The translations under genes and the position numbers were made by a program. The notes under the pieces are model-generated. The model did not search any database and had not been told where the DNA came from. It worked only from the letters and a program-made list of their open reading frames with translations. A stretch of DNA of 64,000 nt from a virus (taxonomy: Duplodnaviria > Caudoviricetes): IMG/VR virus record IMGVR_UViG_2974647559_000001, positions 1 to 64,000 of that record; one strand, given 5' to 3'. Below, piece after piece: positions 1,040 through 57,456 of the stretch (the stretch's first letter is position 1; every line of letters starts with the position of its first letter).

Positions 1040-3882
1040 CAGCTAAGACACTCATTAAACTCAATTTTAGCACGTACCGGTACACTGTTCAATGGTTTGT
1101 CACCACCAGTCCCAAGATTTGCTCTTGTCGCAGGTTTACTACGGCAGTAGTAAAAGGTCTTAACACCACTCAACCAACCTTTAATGTGTATATCAACCAT
1201 CTCTTGTAATGTAATGTCGTTAGGTACAAAAATGTTCAAACTTTGACTTTGGCATACATACTTCTGTCGTGCTGCTGCCAGTTCTACAATCCAAGAAGGA
1301 TTTATTTCTGTCGCTGTCTTAAACACTTTCTTGGCTTCATTATCCAACCAATCTAAGTGCTGTACACTACCTTCGTTCACAATTATGTCTTTCCATACCT
1401 CTGGTGTATTCTTGCCATAAGCATCCAGAACTTTCTCAAGATATTTATTCTTGATTAAGAAGCTACCTGCCCTGCCTTGTGCATTAAACGCATTAGCTGC
1501 CCAAGGTTCTATGGATGGGCTAGTACCCACCATACTACTACTGCTTGCATTTGGTGCGATGGCCAATAAGTGGCTATTCCTCATACCACTACCGTAACAA
1601 TCGTCGCACTCCCCTCGCTCTTTCGCAAGTTGTTTACTAGCCTCTACAGCACGTTCCTTTATTGCGCCGTACAGCCTATGTGTCCATTGTATAGCAGAAT
1701 TAAACCCCCCTGTCTCAAAAGCAATATCTTTGCTTTGTAAGAAAGAGTGCCAACCCAATGTACCTAAACCTATTGCACGTTCTTTACTTGCAGAGTGTAC
1801 CGCACGTTTAAGGTGTGGTGGGGCTAGGCGGATAAAATACTCTAACACGTTATCCAGCAACCTCACCAAGTCTTGCACAATCGTAGTGTCTTTCCATTCC
1901 TCATACTTCTCTAAATTAATAGAAGATAAGCAACACACTGCTGTGCGTTTGTCTGTAGTCCTTAATGTAATTTCAGAACACTGCCCTGTTAGAATACCGT
2001 TGAATACTCCCATACCGCGTTTGCTCTCGGTGAAGCAGTATGTATCATCATAACGACCATCATCCACCACTTCAGTAATCTTAACAAACTGTGTACTTTC
2101 CCTGTTAGGTTTGTGGTCGGTGATTACTAACCGTTTAGGGTTAAAACCTAAAACATGTAAGTTGTTTATACCTGTCTGCCCTATAAGTAACCTGTAAGCT
2201 TGTTTACAGTAAAACATTCCCAACTCGCCGCTACCATCGTTCAAAGGCATCAATCGTTCACCAGCTTCAGTAGATGCTGTTACCTTTGAAGATACACCTA
2301 ACGTCTGTAACATCATTTGCACTTCTTGTAAGAAACCTTGCTCAACACTTCCAACCTGAATGGATTGGGTTTGGCCGTTCCTAGCAATTGTTCCGTCTGA
2401 ATCACACAAACCTTCAAACCACTTGATGCGACTCTCAACATCATAATCTGAACTAGGGACAAAGAACTTATCTTTTAGTAAGTGACTATGACCATACTCA
2501 CGATCTAAGTTGTCTTGCACAGACCAGTTGTGAAAAATGTCACCTAGATACCGCTTCAATTCGCGCTTATCCCCGTACAAATAAATACGTTTACCTTGTT
2601 TTGTTAAGCAACCATCGCCTGAGTAAAAACCGTTAGCATATGGATGTAGCAACGATTCATTCCCTTCAATAACAGGGAAGTCACACTTAATCAGCTTATC
2701 TCCTGCTTTCAATTCATTAGCACGTTTCTCAACAACCCATCGATTACCAGAAGTAGGGTGGCGACAAGCGATGTAAAACTTGTGGTAAGGTGTGCAAGTT
2801 AATTCAAAACCAGCATTGGTTTTAATACTTAGTAATTTCTGGTTCTCACCAGTTTTTACTACAACCGTATCACTCCACTCTTGACCATTCCAAACTGTAA
2901 CTTTTTCACCTTCTAGTTCAGATATAACCTCATAACCATTAGTAGTAAGAATTTTAGTCTCTGGAGCAACACATAAATTACTTTGACTCACACTGTATAG
3001 TGGGTGTGTAATCCAATTTGGAATATTTCGGTTAACTGTGTCTTTGAACATGATATAAGGTTCCCCTGTCTCATATCGAATGTTCATTAATTCTTCCCAC
3101 ACTTCTCTTGCATTTAGAAATCGACCTGTAGCTCCATGTTTGGGATCTATCAGTTCGTAATCTTCCCCGTTTATAACCGACATCATAAACTTATCTGTAA
3201 TGTTTACAGCATTGTTTAAATTAAAACACTTTTTATTACTATCACCACCTACGGGGTTACGCATTTGCATAAAAGCTGCAATTTCTGGGTGGTCAATATC
3301 TAAATATGCTGCCATACTACCTCTGCGAGTGGCAGTCTGCTTATAACTAAGGGTATCAGCATCGTAACCCCTCAAGTGTGCCATAACCCCTGTAGACTTC
3401 TCATCGGGAGATCGATTGGATGCGTACACACCGACACCACCACCCATCATGCTGAGCCAAGCGGCTTCACTACGAGCTTCAACTAGACCTTCTTTTGTAT
3501 CCGGTATATAACTTAAGAAACAACTTATCGGCATACCATCAGGTTCTACATTCTCTTGTAGCCACTCAGAAGCATATTCAAAATTCTCTTTATCAAAAGA
3601 AGGCCATTCCACATTTACGGCATTACTAAGCACTGGGCTTGCAAAAGTAAACCAACCCTTAGAAGCGTAGTCATAAATACGTTGTGCAAAATCATAATCA
3701 CCAAAAGAGAAACATGTTGCTGCCCTAGCGAAACCCTCTTGAGGGGAAGTTTCATGGGATTTCTTGTAGAAGCCTTTTCCTGTTAAAAGAGCAAGTCCTT
3801 GCTCTGGAATAAACTTGTCTCGGCTATAATCAATGATAATACCTAGATACTCTTGTACCGGACTATAATCTTTAGCTACCAA
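1030..3882 (-). CDS. nrdA: Ribonucleotide reductase class Ia alpha subunit, intein-containing precursor
   Basis: ATCF, SCFL, GGGVG, SNL/CSEI, AIAPNASSS, KTFYY and C-terminal CLSCEG motifs. Confidence 0.95.
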   Translation of the reverse strand: MVAKDYSPVQEYLGIIIDYSRDKFIPEQGLALLTGKGFYKKSHETSPQEGFARAATCFSFGDYDFAQRIYDYASKGWFTFASPVLSNAVNVEWPSFDKENFEYASEWLQENVEPDGMPISCFLSYIPDTKEGLVEARSEAAWLSMMGGGVGVYASNRSPDEKSTGVMAHLRGYDADTLSYKQTATRRGSMAAYLDIDHPEIAAFMQMRNPVGGDSNKKCFNLNNAVNITDKFMMSVINGEDYELIDPKHGATGRFLNAREVWEELMNIRYETGEPYIMFKDTVNRNIPNWITHPLYSVSQSNLCVAPETKILTTNGYEVISELEGEKVTVWNGQEWSDTVVVKTGENQKLLSIKTNAGFELTCTPYHKFYIACRHPTSGNRWVVEKRANELKAGDKLIKCDFPVIEGNESLLHPYANGFYSGDGCLTKQGKRIYLYGDKRELKRYLGDIFHNWSVQDNLDREYGHSHLLKDKFFVPSSDYDVESRIKWFEGLCDSDGTIARNGQTQSIQVGSVEQGFLQEVQMMLQTLGVSSKVTASTEAGERLMPLNDGSGELGMFYCKQAYRLLIGQTGINNLHVLGFNPKRLVITDHKPNRESTQFVKITEVVDDGRYDDTYCFTESKRGMGVFNGILTGQCSEITLRTTDKRTAVCCLSSINLEKYEEWKDTTIVQDLVRLLDNVLEYFIRLAPPHLKRAVHSASKERAIGLGTLGWHSFLQSKDIAFETGGFNSAIQWTHRLYGAIKERAVEASKQLAKERGECDDCYGSGMRNSHLLAIAPNASSSSMVGTSPSIEPWAANAFNAQGRAGSFLIKNKYLEKVLDAYGKNTPEVWKDIIVNEGSVQHLDWLDNEAKKVFKTATEINPSWIVELAAARQKYVCQSQSLNIFVPNDITLQEMVDIHIKGWLSGVKTFYYCRSKPATRANLGTGGDKPLNSVPVRAKIEFNECLSCEG
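1981..2973 (-). mobile_element. Intein (331 aa) with LAGLIDADG homing endonuclease in NrdA
   Basis: SNL|CVAPETKIL...GVFNGILTGQ|CSEI; LAGLIDADG-like GFYSGDG and GLCDSDG. Confidence 0.93.
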
Positions 3883-51390: not shown

Positions 51391-51819
51391 ATGTCTGAAG
51401 AAATCAAATCTGTAGATACCGACGATATTGAAGAAGATAAGCCAGTTGTTGTCCGTAACGAAAAAGGACAGTTCATAAAGGGTGTGTCAGGTAATCCCAA
51501 CGGAAGGGGTAAAGGTAATCAGTCTAAGCTCAACAAGACTAAGTTAATTACCCAATATAATAAGTATGGTACAAAATCCTTTGAAGATATTGTACGTCTT
51601 GGCAAGAAAGCTGAGAAAGCTGGTCAACTAACCACAGCACTAAAAGCTGCCATGTTTATAGCAGAAAAACACTTGCAGATGGTTTTACAGCAAGATAAAA
51701 CAGCATTAGAATTACAAAAGCTTCGCATGAAAGAATCTAAAGATGATGGTGATTCTGATGAAGAAGATAAGGACCTGACACAAGCCATTTTCGAGTGGCA
51801 ACGTGCAGAGAATGATTAA
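51391..51819 (+). CDS. Probable terminase small subunit
   Basis: RNEKGQFIKGVSGNPNGR (DUF5681-like) motif; upstream of terL. Confidence 0.55.
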   Translation: MSEEIKSVDTDDIEEDKPVVVRNEKGQFIKGVSGNPNGRGKGNQSKLNKTKLITQYNKYGTKSFEDIVRLGKKAEKAGQLTTALKAAMFIAEKHLQMVLQQDKTALELQKLRMKESKDDGDSDEEDKDLTQAIFEWQRAEND

Positions 51820-51844
51820 AGATTTCATAACTACAACAACATCC

Positions 51845-51960
51845 TAGCTAACTCGCACACCACTGAATATTAGGTTGAGAACATCAGTGCATTCCCTGTT
51901 AGCATTATCTCCAGCCCCATTTAATGTCCCTCCTTTCATTACTTGGGGTTTATTTTTTGT
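51845..51960 (+). other. Structured intergenic element sharing a hairpin with the large ncRNA
   Basis: GCTAAC/GTTAGC and CACTGA/TCAGTG stems; AATATTAGGTTGAG identical to 52549-52562. Confidence 0.45.
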
Positions 51961-51991
51961 TGTAAAATAATTAACATACAGGAATAAAATT

Positions 51992-52246
51992 TTGAGTAAA
52001 GAAATTAAAGTATATCAGTCACGCAATCTTAGCGACTATAGCAAGAAGTTGGTCGAGCTGGTTAAAGCTGGTAATGAAGTGTTATTAGACCAGTGTATCA
52101 GTATGCTCGGTAAAATATATACGATTAAGTATTATGAGCCAGAAGCTGTTGTAGAAGAGACTGTAGAAGAAGCTGCTGTATCCTCAGAGGGTGTAACAAC
52201 GAAAGCTGTTAAGAAGCCCCGTGGTGGTTCCGCTTCCACAAAGTAA
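51992..52246 (+). CDS. Hypothetical protein
   Basis: 84-aa ORF, TTG start after AGGA. Confidence 0.65.
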   Translation: MSKEIKVYQSRNLSDYSKKLVELVKAGNEVLLDQCISMLGKIYTIKYYEPEAVVEETVEEAAVSSEGVTTKAVKKPRGGSASTK

Positions 52247-52259
52247 TATTTAAGGTTAT

Positions 52260-52620
52260 GATTGGTTGGCTACACCAAGCTCAGGTGAGTGAAGTAGCAA
52301 TAATTAATATAAAAATCCTGAACCGTCCCTAGTAATAGGTTGGATTTCTCCCTGTAATAAGGGCAAGCCAAAGTGCTGAGAAATGTTTTTAATTCGGATT
52401 AATTTGAGGCGAAAGCCCACTACGTGATGACCCAGCCGAAAGGTAAGGTTCCTGCTCTGCAATAATTTAAGTTGCATCAGGTTTCGTGGTGTATTCTAAC
52501 GCTAGTAATAGTATTGATATGGCACGTTATGTATTTCACAGCCCACTCAATATTAGGTTGAGGTATCCCTGTGATGACACTGGGAAAGACTAGATTATTC
52601 TACTTTTAGCAGAGTGGAAT
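52260..52620 (+). ncRNA. Candidate large structured non-coding RNA, family unassigned
   Basis: Many nested stems, GAAA loops, three GTAATA-containing loops, long-range helices; no coding capacity. Confidence 0.6.
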
Positions 52621-52629
52621 TAAAACTAA

Positions 52630-52815
52630 AAGTTTGCAAAAGTTTCAGATGAGTGTATATTAGAAATACTCTACAAGGCTCACAAACTAAACACACCTCA
52701 AAAATTAATATGCAATGAATATGGACTATCCCCTGCACAAGTCAGCAGGATAGTCAATGGAAGTAGACGTAAAGATTTACATGATCAATTCTTTGCAAAA
52801 GCGCATTCCCAGTAG
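52630..52815 (+). pseudogene. Startless HTH fragment like HNH-endonuclease C-termini
   Basis: AKVSDECILEI...QKLICNEYGLSPAQVSRIVNGSRRK; in-frame TAA at 52627. Confidence 0.5.
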
Positions 52816-52841
52816 TGCGCTCTCTCGAAGGAGTAACAAGT

Positions 52842-54556
52842 ATGGCAAGACCAAGCAGCAAGAAAGTCTCAAACGTACAACCAAAAATGGAAGTGTCACC
52901 ACAACCAGTACAGATGAAATTTTTAAAAGCCACCGAATCTATAGTATTCTTTGGCGGTGGAGCTAAACCAAAACTGGTTCCACTTTAATCAACCCCTCTA
53001 ATTCGATGAAACCCTAACGTGCAGACGAGGGCAATATCGAGCAAGGCGAAAGCCGTGTGTAGAGACTATCGAAAGACACTTAATGTGAATCTAGTAGAGT
53101 AGGCAACAAGCGTTGTCGAAACGGGGGGCTACGAAAGTAGAAGATATAGTCCGACACTGAGGGAAACCTCAGAGAGTGTAGCGAACTCTATAACAGAAAG
53201 GGTGGTGGTAAAACTTGGTCAATATTGATAGATAACTTACAATTCTGTCACGACCCGCAATATTTTAGTGTGTTTGTTCGTACAACAAACGTAGAGATTG
53301 ATAATGGTCTTTGGCCAGAAGCCAAAAGAATGTATCTTCCATACTTGGTAGATAGTCAAGGCAGATTCTTAGGCAAAGCCCACATATCAGAAAAGAACAA
53401 AACCATAACTTTCCCCTCTGGTGGTAGAACAAAGTTCACCTATTGCGCGACGGATAAGGATGTTGATGCGTGGTACGGATCGGAGATAACTCGTATATAT
53501 CTGGATGAATGCCAGCACCGTACCGAATATCAATTTGACTTATTCAAATCTCGTAACCGTTCTATGGCTAAAGTGCCAAAAGGTATGAGATGTACGCTGA
53601 ACCCATCACCAGATAGCTTTATTTATAAATACGTAGAGCCTTTCCTAGACGACGATAAGTACCCAATACCGGAGTTATCTGGTAAGACACGTTATTTTAC
53701 CATACTGAATGGTATCCTCATATCATCTTGGGATGCAGACGACATACGTAATGATACAGGGAAAGAACCAGAAACTTACACGTACATACCCGCAGTTCTT
53801 GGGGATAACGAAAAGTTAATGGAGATCGACCCTGCGTACAAGAATAAGCTAGACGCATTGCCTGAAGCTAAACGTAAACAACTCCTGTTAGGGTGTTGGG
53901 CATCTACCGATGAAGATGGTTTGTATTTCAAGCGGGAATACTTAAAAAGAGCCAACTCTATACCACTCCATAGTGTTTATTGCAGAGCATGGGACTTAGC
54001 ATCTTCTGCTGGTGACACACCTAATACGGTTGGTTGTGATGCTACACAAGGTATGTTAATGGCTCGTTGCCCACAAGGTTATTTCTATCTCGTAGGTAGT
54101 AAGCGATTCAGAAAACGTGCTGGTGAGCGAGATCAAGAGATACTTAGAACAGCCAAACAAGATGGGCAAGATGTTACTGTTGTTATACCAAAAGATACTG
54201 GTGCTGGCGGTGCTGCTCAATATGAATACCTCTCAAAACTGTTAATAACAGAGGGTTTCATTGTTAAGCAAGATACTGCTGTTGCAACAACAAGCAAACT
54301 TAGTAAAGCATCCCCATTCTTCAGTGCATGTGAAAATGGTTTAGTGTATTTGGTTGAAAAGAGTTTTGAGACAGAAGAATTAGAACTCTGCATGAGAGAA
54401 CTTGAAGTGTTTGATGGTGTATCAAGGTCTACAAGATTGCGCCACGATGAAACAGTTGATACATGCGCGACTGGGTTCAACTACCTATCAAAGAGACAAT
54501 CAATACCACAAATAAATCTACCAAACTTAACCAAATCAAATGAGTTTTCATTTTAA
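52842..54556 (+). CDS. terL: Terminase large subunit, join(52842..52964,53201..54556), ~492 aa
   Basis: Splicing rebuilds Walker A FFGGGA|GGGKT; Walker B YLDE; TLNP; RAWDLA; HDETVD; AAGGAG RBS. Confidence 0.9.
52965..53200 (+). mobile_element. Group I self-splicing intron (236 nt, no ORF)
   Basis: P1 GGAGCU/GGUUCC with U-G at the splice site; P7 GACUAU (53064)/AUAGUC (53146); AAGAUAUAGUCC; terminal G. Confidence 0.92.
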
Positions 54557-56049: not shown

Positions 56050-57456
56050 ATGGCACACAAACTATCGAGGCTGTTAGCCGAGAAGATTTACAATAAACCC
56101 CTCTTGATTACTATGGGCAGTCTAAATGCTGTCCTAGATTATCTGGAACACCGTACAGATTCAATCACATCAAAAGAAGTAGAAGCATCCCTTGTTGAAA
56201 TGGGCGTAGAACGCTCTGAGAAGATGCTGACAGACACACTAGCTGTCATCCCTATCACTGGTTCACTCTCATATGAAAAAACCTTCTTAGGCGCTTTGTG
56301 TGGAATGACATCTTATGAAGGTTTAATCGAAGACGTCTCTGAAGCATTATCAATGGGATTAAAAACCATTGTGTTTCGTGCTGATAGTGGCGGGGGTGAA
56401 GCATATTCTATGATGTCTTGCGCTAAAGATATACGTGAAATGGCTGACCAAGCTGGTGCAAAGATAATCACATATATTGATGGGATGGCTGCTTCAGCTT
56501 GTTATGGCTTGATTGCAGTATCTGATGAAATCATAGCTCATTCTGACTCACAAGCTGGTTCAATCGGCGTTGTTATTCAATTGATGAATAACTCAGGTAA
56601 ATTAGAGAAAGAAGGCTACAAACGTAAGTTTATCACTTCTGCTGATTCCAAAGTGCCAGTTGATGATGATGGTGAATTCAAAGCTGAATGGCTTGCCGAT
56701 TTAAAAGAATCTGTTGATACATTACACGCTAAATTTGTTAACCATGTTGCAGCTTACCGCCCAATGAGTGCTGAACAGGTTGATAGTCTAAAAGCGAAAG
56801 TATTTGGTTCAGATAAAGCCTTGAGTCTTGGTTTGATTGATAAAGTCATGGATCACATGGAATTCCAAGAATACTTAGAACAAATATCAGAGGAAGTGAA
56901 GGAACCTAATATGTCACTGTTTGGTTTATTTAAAAAGAACACTAAGGCATCTGCCGATGTGTCTCAGATTATGTCTGAGCAACAACAAGAAGCTGCGCTT
57001 GCAGTAAACCCAGAGGAAAATGTAGATATGGCTGAACAAGCCCTAATGCAAGAGTTGCAAGCTAAGCTAGATGCTTTACAGACTCAGTATGACGCTGACG
57101 TAGTAGAGGCGTTAGCTGCTCTTGATGAAAAAGATGCAGAGTTGAATGCAGCATTAAAAGAGTTGGCTGATATGAAGCAAGCTCAAGCTGAACAACTTTT
57201 AGCGGATAAAAAAGCTAAGTTAACTGCTGTAGTTGGTACGGAACAAGCTGACAGTTTGTTTGCTCATCTGTCAACACTAGAAGATTCAGCGTTCAATGCT
57301 GTAGTTGATTCATACAAAACGGCTAATGCTAAATTCGATAAATCTGAATTAGCATCAGAAGTCGGTGTTGAAGCTGACGGTTCTGCTAACACAGTAGAAG
57401 CTGAATCAAAGTTAGTTCAACGTTTAAAAGCTCGTCAACAAAAACAATCTAAATAA
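56050..57456 (+). CDS. S49-family prohead protease with C-terminal scaffold
   Basis: DSGGGE, AASACY, GSIGV; acidic coiled-coil tail. Confidence 0.88.
   Translation: MAHKLSRLLAEKIYNKPLLITMGSLNAVLDYLEHRTDSITSKEVEASLVEMGVERSEKMLTDTLAVIPITGSLSYEKTFLGALCGMTSYEGLIEDVSEALSMGLKTIVFRADSGGGEAYSMMSCAKDIREMADQAGAKIITYIDGMAASACYGLIAVSDEIIAHSDSQAGSIGVVIQLMNNSGKLEKEGYKRKFITSADSKVPVDDDGEFKAEWLADLKESVDTLHAKFVNHVAAYRPMSAEQVDSLKAKVFGSDKALSLGLIDKVMDHMEFQEYLEQISEEVKEPNMSLFGLFKKNTKASADVSQIMSEQQQEAALAVNPEENVDMAEQALMQELQAKLDALQTQYDADVVEALAALDEKDAELNAALKELADMKQAQAEQLLADKKAKLTAVVGTEQADSLFAHLSTLEDSAFNAVVDSYKTANAKFDKSELASEVGVEADGSANTVEAESKLVQRLKARQQKQSK

Follow-up and report, generated by a model that had tools for sequence, protein, structure and literature searches.

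A conserved pseudoknotted RNA motif in the mosaic terS-terL spacer of a marine phage also occurs in T4-type coliphages

Introduction

The present study concerns the spacer between the small and large terminase genes (terS and terL) of an 84.6-kb marine phage (Duplodnaviria; Caudoviricetes), analysed in positions 1 to 64,000 of IMG/VR record IMGVR_UViG_2974647559_000001, a stretch of 64,000 nucleotides (nt) hereafter called the window. A preliminary description had proposed that positions 52260-52620 form one ornate non-coding RNA of about 360 nt, representing a new phage RNA class with a possible role in packaging or as a decoy or scaffold. The locus comprises a probable small terminase gene, an open reading frame (ORF) of 84 amino acids (aa) termed ORF84, a gap without coding potential, the remnant of a homing endonuclease gene and a terL gene carrying a group I intron. 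Within the gap lies a compact pseudoknotted RNA motif (52310-52397, plus strand) with copies in other phages, and the spacer as a whole is a mosaic 'RNA island' rather than a single ornate RNA; we hold both this composition and the reality of the motif to be highly probable.

Results

Coding content and folding of the candidate stretch

The gap at 52247-52630 extends from ORF84 (51992-52246) to a start-less frame of 61 codons (52630-52815), and six-frame translation meets stops throughout all six frames. An origin as decayed coding sequence was rejected on account of these stops and of tblastn searches with 16 endonuclease homologues, three syntenic full-length endonucleases and a DUF723 protein, which found nothing upstream of 52630. 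A transfer RNA (tRNA) or pseudo-tRNA inside the candidate was detected by neither ARAGORN nor Rfam, and the splicing of a short ORF (52258-52332) to the helix-turn-helix (HTH) frame of the endonuclease remnant was dropped because its ATG is ATA in the closest relative, contig L010. The gene terL starts at 52842, with a hidden first exon, instead of at 53225, so that the region ends 26 nt before terL, after the intervening 186-nt endonuclease remnant.

All complementary segments listed in the preliminary description are present, at the positions given there or a base or two away. By folding energy the structure does not exceed chance: the plus strand of 52247-52640 (394 nt) has a minimum free energy of -98.1 kcal/mol, compared with -92.2 ± 5.4 in dinucleotide shuffles (z -1.10), and with 14 of 100 shuffles equally good it folds no better than shuffled controls. 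The minus strand gave z -0.43 and the 3' part (52403-52640, 238 nt) z -1.94. Rfam 15 returned no match at gathering scores across the whole window and, for 52260-52565 including the motif, none even at E ≤ 10; 3' of 52565 only sub-threshold matches to unrelated families (rli22, Flavi_CRE) appeared. No Rfam match in the candidate concerned group I introns, group II domains, transfer-messenger RNA, RNase P or tRNA, whose signatures the preliminary description had judged to be lacking.

A conserved motif supported by covariation

The segment 52305-52404 matched contigs L036/L063 (81%) and L053. A covariance model, R1, which was trained on the window together with L010 and L036, recovered copies in L053, L051, L023 and L065 and, after a loose pattern scan of IMG/VR, in about 15 further distinct contigs. 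The window copy scores 125 bits with R1, a value obtained by construction, the model having been trained on it. The motif measures about 90-130 nt across the family, no further copy was found in this genome, and no known Rfam family corresponds to it. Its elements are listed in Table 1.

Helix P1 reads AAUCC/GGAUU in the window and AACCC/GGGUU, AAGAC/GUCUU, AACAAC/GUUGUU or GCGC/GCGC elsewhere. P2 is CCUA/UAGG, with a loop ranging from GUAA or GCAA up to a 35-nt extension. P3, CCU-GUAAYA-AGG, is nearly invariant across the family. Px occurs as CUU/AAG, CCU/AGG, CCC/GGG, CCAU/GUGG and UCUC/GAGA. After the junction a GGUAA-type strand is conserved, the U-run co-occurs with the 5' A-run, and a U/A-rich linker comes next. 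The pseudoknot pairs are CCG/CGG in the window, CGAGU/ACUUG in L036, CCAA/UUGG in L103, GCCC/GGGU in L090, CCCA/UGGG in L072 and GUAG/CUAC in L098.

Two of the pairings noticed at the outset, AATCC/GGATT and TTTCTC/GAGAAA, gained comparative support as P1 and Px respectively. The hairpin TTAAT-tcgg-ATTAA did not survive comparison: because the alignment across the family assigns these roles, UUAAU-UCGG-AUUAA is better read as the U-run, the linker and the 3' strand of the pseudoknot. Among three supposed GTAATA loops, the third is the invariant GUAAUA hexaloop of P3, while the other two belong to GUAA tetraloop hairpins, one of which is GCAA in L010.

In an R1 alignment of 16 distinct uncultured phage contigs, 96.4% of pair cells are standard pairs (a percentage inflated in such alignments; see Discussion) and 10 of the 16 pairs change on both sides. 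None of 500 shuffles reached the observed scores, and sliding the partners by 1-3 columns lowered pairing to 27-48%. The duplex energy of the pseudoknot is -4.39 kcal/mol within sequences against -2.92 across sequences (permutation p 0.0002), and the in-register permutation test for Px gave p 0.0004. Because of its G-U pairs, the structure is strand-specific. A second model, R2, trained on 19 rows, matched sequences outside its training set with E-values of 5e-11 to 6e-3: T2, Moonvirus CF1, Klebsiella Roth34, Karamvirus Entb_43, Gelderlandvirus CGG4-1, Vequintavirus HeinrichReichert, coliphage Ivi and marine contig L042. All five P1 pairs covary in this untrained set, and Px covaries as well (CCA/UGG, CCCU/AGGG, CUGG/CCAG, CGCG/CGCG). 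P1 and the P2 hairpin are supported by covariation, and the pseudoknot between J1/2 and the 3' tail by the permutation test. The window copy has every feature of the family as defined here, namely P1, P2, Px, P3, P4, the pseudoknot, an intergenic position and the strand of the genes. The initial observation was right about the hairpins and about a real structured RNA, one with covariation and no Rfam match; its size is about 90 nt (52310-52397), not 360 nt, and the longer stretch is not conserved as a unit.

Distribution and genomic setting of the motif

A weak BLAST match (E 0.9) to JS98-type coliphages proved real, as R1 scores 33-35 bits on the JS98 spacer, which lies upstream of vs.8 and after the internal-head-protein gene that follows denV; the denV-vs.8 spacer of T4 scores 23 bits. 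BLAST with the JS98 spacer returned 1014 phage records. Among cultured phages the carriers are T4, T2, JS98, Moon-, Karam- and Gelderlandvirus, a Vequintavirus and coliphage Ivi; Rfam yields nothing for the T4 copy. The annotated start of T4 vs.8 falls inside the motif (L135 1157-1260; L136 2341-2443). Over the motif T4 and JS98 use different frames, with homology only from M(R/K)TFLTG on, so the spacer is most likely non-coding, and the annotated N-terminal residues (about 40) of T4 Vs.8 are probably not real.

Copies of the motif invariably share the strand of their flanking genes and are located in ORF-free gaps: the denV-vs.8 spacer of T4-like phages, 5' of a Vequintavirus tRNA array, 3' of the endolysin gene of Ivi, and before or after terS in marine phages. 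The suggested packaging function, by analogy with the packaging RNA (pRNA) of phi29, finds no support in view of the T4-like, Vequintavirus and Ivi settings. No downstream gene family is common to all loci, which include vs.8, tRNAs, homing endonucleases, terS, terL and small ORFs. Of 22 loci, 10 have a same-strand tRNA gene within 500 nt. The motif of L118 begins 2 nt after a tRNA-Ser ending in CCA; other loci are 40-450 nt from a tRNA or have none. The Vequintavirus copy lies about 500 nt before an array of six tRNAs, and the T4 motif about 6 kb from the tRNA cluster.

For bacterial and archaeal genomes, the exact 20-nt core pattern gave five matches in 185,579 species genomes, approximately the number expected by chance, none of which was confirmed by R1; with R2 one was borderline (L141, E 0.02). 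In the window, ARAGORN reports a 94-nt tRNA-Val at 57218-57311, inside a 468-aa ORF (56050-57456; S49 peptidase-like in relatives); Rfam tRNA gives no confirmation at gathering score, and the call is probably false. In L065 a tRNA-like stretch with a GGTTCGATTCC T-arm (about 2420-2500), uncalled by ARAGORN, shares a 1.1-kb non-coding island with the motif and may be a tRNA with an unusual insert.

Mosaicism of the spacer

The closest relative, L010 (terL 99%), shares 51822-52310 at 92% and 52309-52404 at 97%, with 120 extra bases separating hairpin H1 from the motif. Instead of 52405-52827 (423 bp), which it lacks, it has 74 bases with the terL ribosome-binding site and a hairpin resembling a terminator; 52405-52827 is specific to its lineage and took the place of a terminator-like spacer. 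Relatives with 77% terL identity (L004-L006) have only 39 nt in common with the candidate (52597-52635), and its other pieces recur separately and in other orders in other phage contigs. A single RNA of about 360 nt finds no backing here: the two thirds outside the motif are missing from the closest relative and, two short modules apart, have no detectable homologue. The 120-nt insert of L010 was considered as a homologue of 52405-52620 and discarded, with just one 11-nt exact match. The 3' 76 nt of this insert (L010 4270-4389, upstream of the motif) recur in L004 (414-489), directly before a tRNA gene, and L010 has a further 700-bp insert (3076-3779) with a 91-aa ORF after its terS-like gene.

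Contigs of the public sequencing runs X2, X3 and X5 contain 51424-52854 at 98.7% identity without gaps; because the flanks are unlike on both sides, this 1.43-kb block moves between phage backgrounds. The 17 listed substitutions that distinguish the X3 variant from the window all lie outside 52287-52683 (P about 0.004-0.009 if evenly placed), which fits either selection or a recent recombination tract. X3-X6 are four very small runs labelled as transcriptomic RNA-Seq of one organism, with multi-kb phage contigs at depths above 1600. The phage contigs of X3 and X5 (5.7-38 kb, depth 1600-3800) have an identical counterpart contig in a DNA run that belongs to a different study, and X3-X6 look like phage-genome material, not a transcriptome. 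Metatranscriptome X20 contributed one 172-nt contig, over 52087-52255 only; such contigs cannot give transcript ends.

Other hairpins and short modules

Outside the motif, the pairing GCTAC/GTAGC corresponds to H1 and is backed by one compensatory change from G-C to A-U in L010 (G52269 to A with C52298 to U). Homologues of 52403-52535 were found neither in 64 related loci nor in the phage collection. CACAG/CTGTG and CTCAA/TTGAG together form hairpin B2, of which 31 nt are 93.5% identical to L023, L024, L050 and L051; both stems covary with the L023-type copies (CACAG/CUGUG against CUUAG/CUAAG, and CUCAA/UUGAG against CUGAA/UUCAG). Hairpin B1 contains a 27-nt repeat, 85% identical to 52536-52562, and its inner stem is restored by C at 51865 in the L010 and X3 variants.

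The GAUGACACUGGGAAAGACUAG element is shared with unannotated non-coding gaps of Vibrio phages pVco-5 (Schitoviridae), pVco-7 and MS02 and of Shewanella phage 3/49, with E-values of only 0.2-3 in database searches and of 5e-7 to 2e-6 pairwise; it has no Rfam family. In pVco-5 and MS02 (L151 601-621; L152 601-622) it comes after a hairpin with compensatorily changed pairs (GUCC/GGAC against GUGG/CCAC), and a related string, GUGAUGAC...GAAAG, stands at 52423-52443. Hairpin C belongs to the 39 nt shared with L004-L006 (87% identity), where it precedes a DUF723 gene and its stem shows a compensatory change (UUCUACU/AGUGGAA against UUCUCU/AGAGAA). The long-range pairing TGCTCTGC/GCAGAGTG put forward in the preliminary description competes with this conserved hairpin and lacks support. 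The heptamer GUGAUGA/GUGAUGG recurs in phage RNA islands, often on the 5' side of a stem, and could be a k-turn-like or processing signal.

Endonuclease remnant and neighbouring genes

The frame downstream of the candidate has no ATG, GTG or TTG in frame, and exhaustive HMMER searches placed it at the last 58 or so residues of 187-239-aa proteins (45-53% identity). Over the same terminal residues, identity to NUMOD4+HNH proteins of 232-240 aa, syntenic ones among them, is 45-56%. Syntenic full-length genes of 235-240 aa stand directly upstream of terL in L053, L013 and L023 and match only 52636-52812 (56% identity), the N-terminal 175 residues having no similarity upstream of 52630. An intact NUMOD4/HNH_3 endonuclease is not present: about 59 codons are left, encoding the C-terminal HTH without a nuclease domain. 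Because 52630-52815 corresponds to this HTH without the upstream remainder, the candidate abuts a truncated endonuclease gene. The remnant shares with I-HmuI-like NUMOD4/HNH endonucleases the C-terminal HTH (45-56% identity) and, in relatives, the position upstream of terL; unlike them, it lacks a start codon and nuclease domain. It differs from the X3 variant by eight substitutions, four of them synonymous; some constraint may therefore still act on it, or the stump may be recent.

ORF84 (P0001) has no Pfam or PHROG match. The 142-aa ORF upstream of it is probably the small terminase. Exon 1 of terL is 100% identical to a 48-aa call of L010. The intron in the Walker A motif of terL scores 48.9 bits with Rfam RF00028 (E 7.6e-11), just below the gathering score of 50, and introns at the same site in relatives score 63-85 bits; its position, at about 52965-53200, follows from the contiguous alignment of the intron-less relative L009 to 52898-52963 and 53201-53295. 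Relatives carry one or two terL introns at or near the site, with two in L023, and terL of Vibrio phage qdvp001 is annotated in three pieces.

Table 1. Features of the terS-terL region, with window coordinates unless a contig is named.
Feature	Position	Strand	Remarks
Conserved pseudoknotted RNA motif	52310-52397	+	Covariance model, covariation, permutation tests; no Rfam match
A-run of motif	52311-15	+	
P1	52314-18/52342-46	+	Encloses J1/2 and hairpin P2
J1/2 joining strand	52319-26	+	Conserved UGAACCGU
P2	52328-31/52336-39	+	GUAA loop in window
Px	52347-49/52379-81	+	Closes three-way junction with P3 and P4
P3	52350-53/52360-63	+	GUAAUA loop
P4	52366-68/52375-77	+	3-bp covarying stem
U-run	52386-90	+	Followed by linker AAUU
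Pseudoknot	52323-25 with 52395-97	+	3' part of J1/2 pairs with bases directly after the linker
Hairpin H1 (GCUAC/GUAGC)	52269-52298	+	Lineage-specific; outside conserved motif
Unconserved hairpins (GGC-GAAA-GCC; CACUACG/CGUGGUG arm; CUA-GUAA-UAG)	52403-52535	+	First part of the 423-bp segment missing in L010
Hairpin B2	52536-52575	+	Orphan copy of a P2 extension, which L023/L051/L053-type motifs have instead of the tetraloop
Hairpin B1	51853-51890	+	Partial second B-type hairpin, loop UAUUAGG; in spacer after DUF5681 (terS-like) gene, upstream of ORF84
Element GAUGACACUGGGAAAGACUAG (21-23 nt)	52573-52597	+	Exact 21-22-nt matches in other phages
Hairpin C	52597-52620	+	8-bp stem, loop UUUAGCAG, then UUAAAACU; conserved in L004-L006
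Heptamer GUGAUGA/GUGAUGG	52424, 52571; L010 about 4279; L036 about 973, 1031; L065 about 2148		
NUMOD4/HNH_3 homing endonuclease, C-terminal HTH stump	52630-52818	+	61 codons and stop, start-less
P0001, 84-aa ORF (ORF84)	51992-52246	+	98% identical in L010; 44% to 93-aa ORF of L004
142-aa ORF	51391-51819		Weak DUF5681 match; PHROG without assigned function
terL exon 1	52842-52964	+	41 codons, ends FFGGGA; hidden from ORF calls
Group I intron in terL Walker A motif	52965-53200	+	About 236 nt, ORF-less; outside candidate

Discussion

The reading that we prefer, tentatively and with a probability of about 0.35, is that the motif is a co-transcribed, nuclease-resistant domain that lasts as a stable RNA, its target being a factor which many phages share. 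It would be transcribed together with the neighbouring genes, fold as a compact double-pseudoknot domain resistant to nucleases and survive processing as a discrete RNA resembling the stable RNAs of the T4 tRNA cluster; its invariant loops would then act on some factor of host or phage that very different phages share, without regulating one particular downstream gene.

Several observations weigh against this. The T4 RNAs that serve as the model for a stable RNA in a tRNA cluster, rnaC and rnaD (species 1 and 2), are likewise small structured phage RNAs embedded among tRNA genes, in a phage that also carries the motif, but they do not match it in sequence or structure: across T4 62500-73500 (11 kb), R1 with filters off found only the denV-vs.8 spacer. 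Linkage to tRNAs is not universal, because no credible tRNA gene was found in the window. Terminator-like hairpins lie 25-60 nt 3' of the motif in L010, L053 and L023, an arrangement that would fit a cis-acting switch too. The substitution-free stretch could reflect a recent recombination tract instead of selection, the RNA-labelled runs are no evidence of transcription because they are tiny and hold whole phage contigs at depths above 1600, and the paired percentages are inflated because covariance-model alignments are fitted to the model.

It is unlikely that the motif is a cis-acting switch controlling read-through or translation of whatever lies downstream (here the packaging operon), whether as a riboswitch-like aptamer or as an antiterminator that binds RNA polymerase in the manner of HK022 put. 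Such elements, including pseudoknotted aptamers of the SAM-II and preQ1-II type, are also compact, cis-encoded and co-transcribed, have conserved unpaired bases and are sometimes followed by terminators or overlapped by a ribosome-binding site. Compact and pseudoknotted, the junction of the motif has unpaired nucleotides that hardly vary, and every copy shares the strand of the genes around it; close behind the motif, terminator-like hairpins stand in L051 as well as in the three contigs just named; in Ivi the pseudoknot 3' strand CCGGAG contains GGAG, and the UUG annotated as the start of the following small ORF comes 9 nt further on; and the marine-phage copies stand at the entry to the terminase module. 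However, it has no sequence relation to these elements and no shared downstream gene family, the next gene begins anywhere from about 10 to more than 700 nt away, in the window terL lies beyond 440 nt of unrelated sequence, and in T4 and JS98 the conserved vs.8 frame begins about 60 nt further on.

We regard as improbable a self-cleaving ribozyme that cuts polycistronic or tRNA-array transcripts, whether a divergent relative of the hepatitis delta virus (HDV) type, of the theta kind, or a new class. The succession of P1, pseudoknot 5' strand, hairpin, P1', branched domain, linker and pseudoknot 3' strand reproduces the HDV fold, with its strand order P1, P2, P3, P1', P4, P2' and nested double pseudoknot; HDV-like and theta ribozymes are similarly small and borne by phages, theta ribozymes flank phage tRNA genes (PMC10879173), tRNAs are enriched near the motif, and in L118 P1 starts 6-7 nt past the encoded CCA end, the cleavage site expected of such ribozymes lying within 5 nt of a tRNA 3' end. 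The defining HDV-like features nevertheless fail. Where a catalytic cytosine should open J4/2, the linker after Px' is UUUUAAUU, UUUACAU or UAAAUA, its first base being U in nearly all copies, and a C-to-U exchange of this cytosine is the inactive control for theta ribozymes (PMC10879173). P1 opens with A-U in marine copies and G-C in T4 in place of a G-U wobble, and P1.1 partners are not conserved, because the loop varies from GUAA/GCAA to a 35-nt extension. Unlike those ribozymes, the motif contains an invariant GUAAYA hairpin, and a branched three-way junction stands where they have P4; no Rfam ribozyme model, HDV types included, matches, and most copies are not next to a tRNA end. That the motif is instead a new catalytic or processing RNA class, with an HDV-like fold and different chemistry or as a maturation element for tRNA-array or polycistronic transcripts, seems to us a comparably long shot.

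The original proposal, one RNA of about 360 nt spanning 52260-52620, now appears very improbable. In its favour, the stop-rich stretch holds many hairpins capped by GNRA or UNCG loops, no substitution separates the two phage backgrounds over 52287-52683, and the 3' part folds somewhat better than shuffles. Yet the z-score of the whole is only -1.1, the nearest relative lacks 52405-52827 and has H1 split from the motif by 120 nt, the pieces occur separately and in other orders in other phages, the long-range pairing clashes with hairpin C, and the T4 copy of the motif is far from terminase genes. The likeness to GOLLD, ROOL and phi29 pRNA goes no further than their being structured and phage-borne, GOLLD and ROOL often near tRNAs: they measure 170-800 nt and have their own Rfam models, none of which matches, whereas the motif measures about 90-130 nt and is untied to packaging genes. 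When the window, 14 relatives, the T4 copy and the Vibrio-phage gaps were compared with Rfam at gathering scores and at E ≤ 10, only terL group I introns and tRNAs came up. Least credible of all is that the region is a decayed group I intron that once carried the HNH endonuclease gene, its hairpins being remains of the intron core. Introns often carry HNH/NUMOD4 endonucleases, terL has a true group I intron 150 nt downstream, AAGACUAG at 52586-93 resembles a P7 strand, and the 11-nt GGCGAAAGCC is common to the region and the terL intron. Against this, no core (P3-P9, P7) is recognisable: 52247-52841 gives no RF00028 match even at E 10 in the search that found the terL intron. Nor is there an interrupted host gene, ORF84 having its own stop and homologues that end alike in L010 and L004; in L053, L013 and L023 the full-length endonuclease genes at the syntenic position stand free, with terminators on one side and terL on the other; and neither an uninterrupted homologue spanning 52246/52630 nor a spliced complementary DNA was seen.

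The papers searched for RNA in the T4 denV-vs.8 spacer or for tRNA-associated phage motifs contained no description of the motif, only work on theta ribozymes and a catalogue of thousands of unnamed candidate viral RNAs (PMC10690425), which may already list it. The locus illustrates that an intergenic stretch of phage DNA that looks 'ornate' need not be one large RNA and can have built up from independent RNA modules and the debris of an endonuclease gene. The occurrence of a motif without Rfam match in T4-type coliphages, Vequintavirus, a small coliphage and many uncultured marine phages suggests, by its breadth, that the motif answers a requirement which very different phages share, for example in the processing or stability of RNA or in coping with a host factor. 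Its presence in T4, T2 and the Vequintavirus coliphage HeinrichReichert (bas58 locus tags) makes its function directly testable in laboratory Escherichia coli. Should the motif prove catalytic or act in processing, it would be a new class common to T4 and many unrelated phages, overlooked in the best-studied phage.

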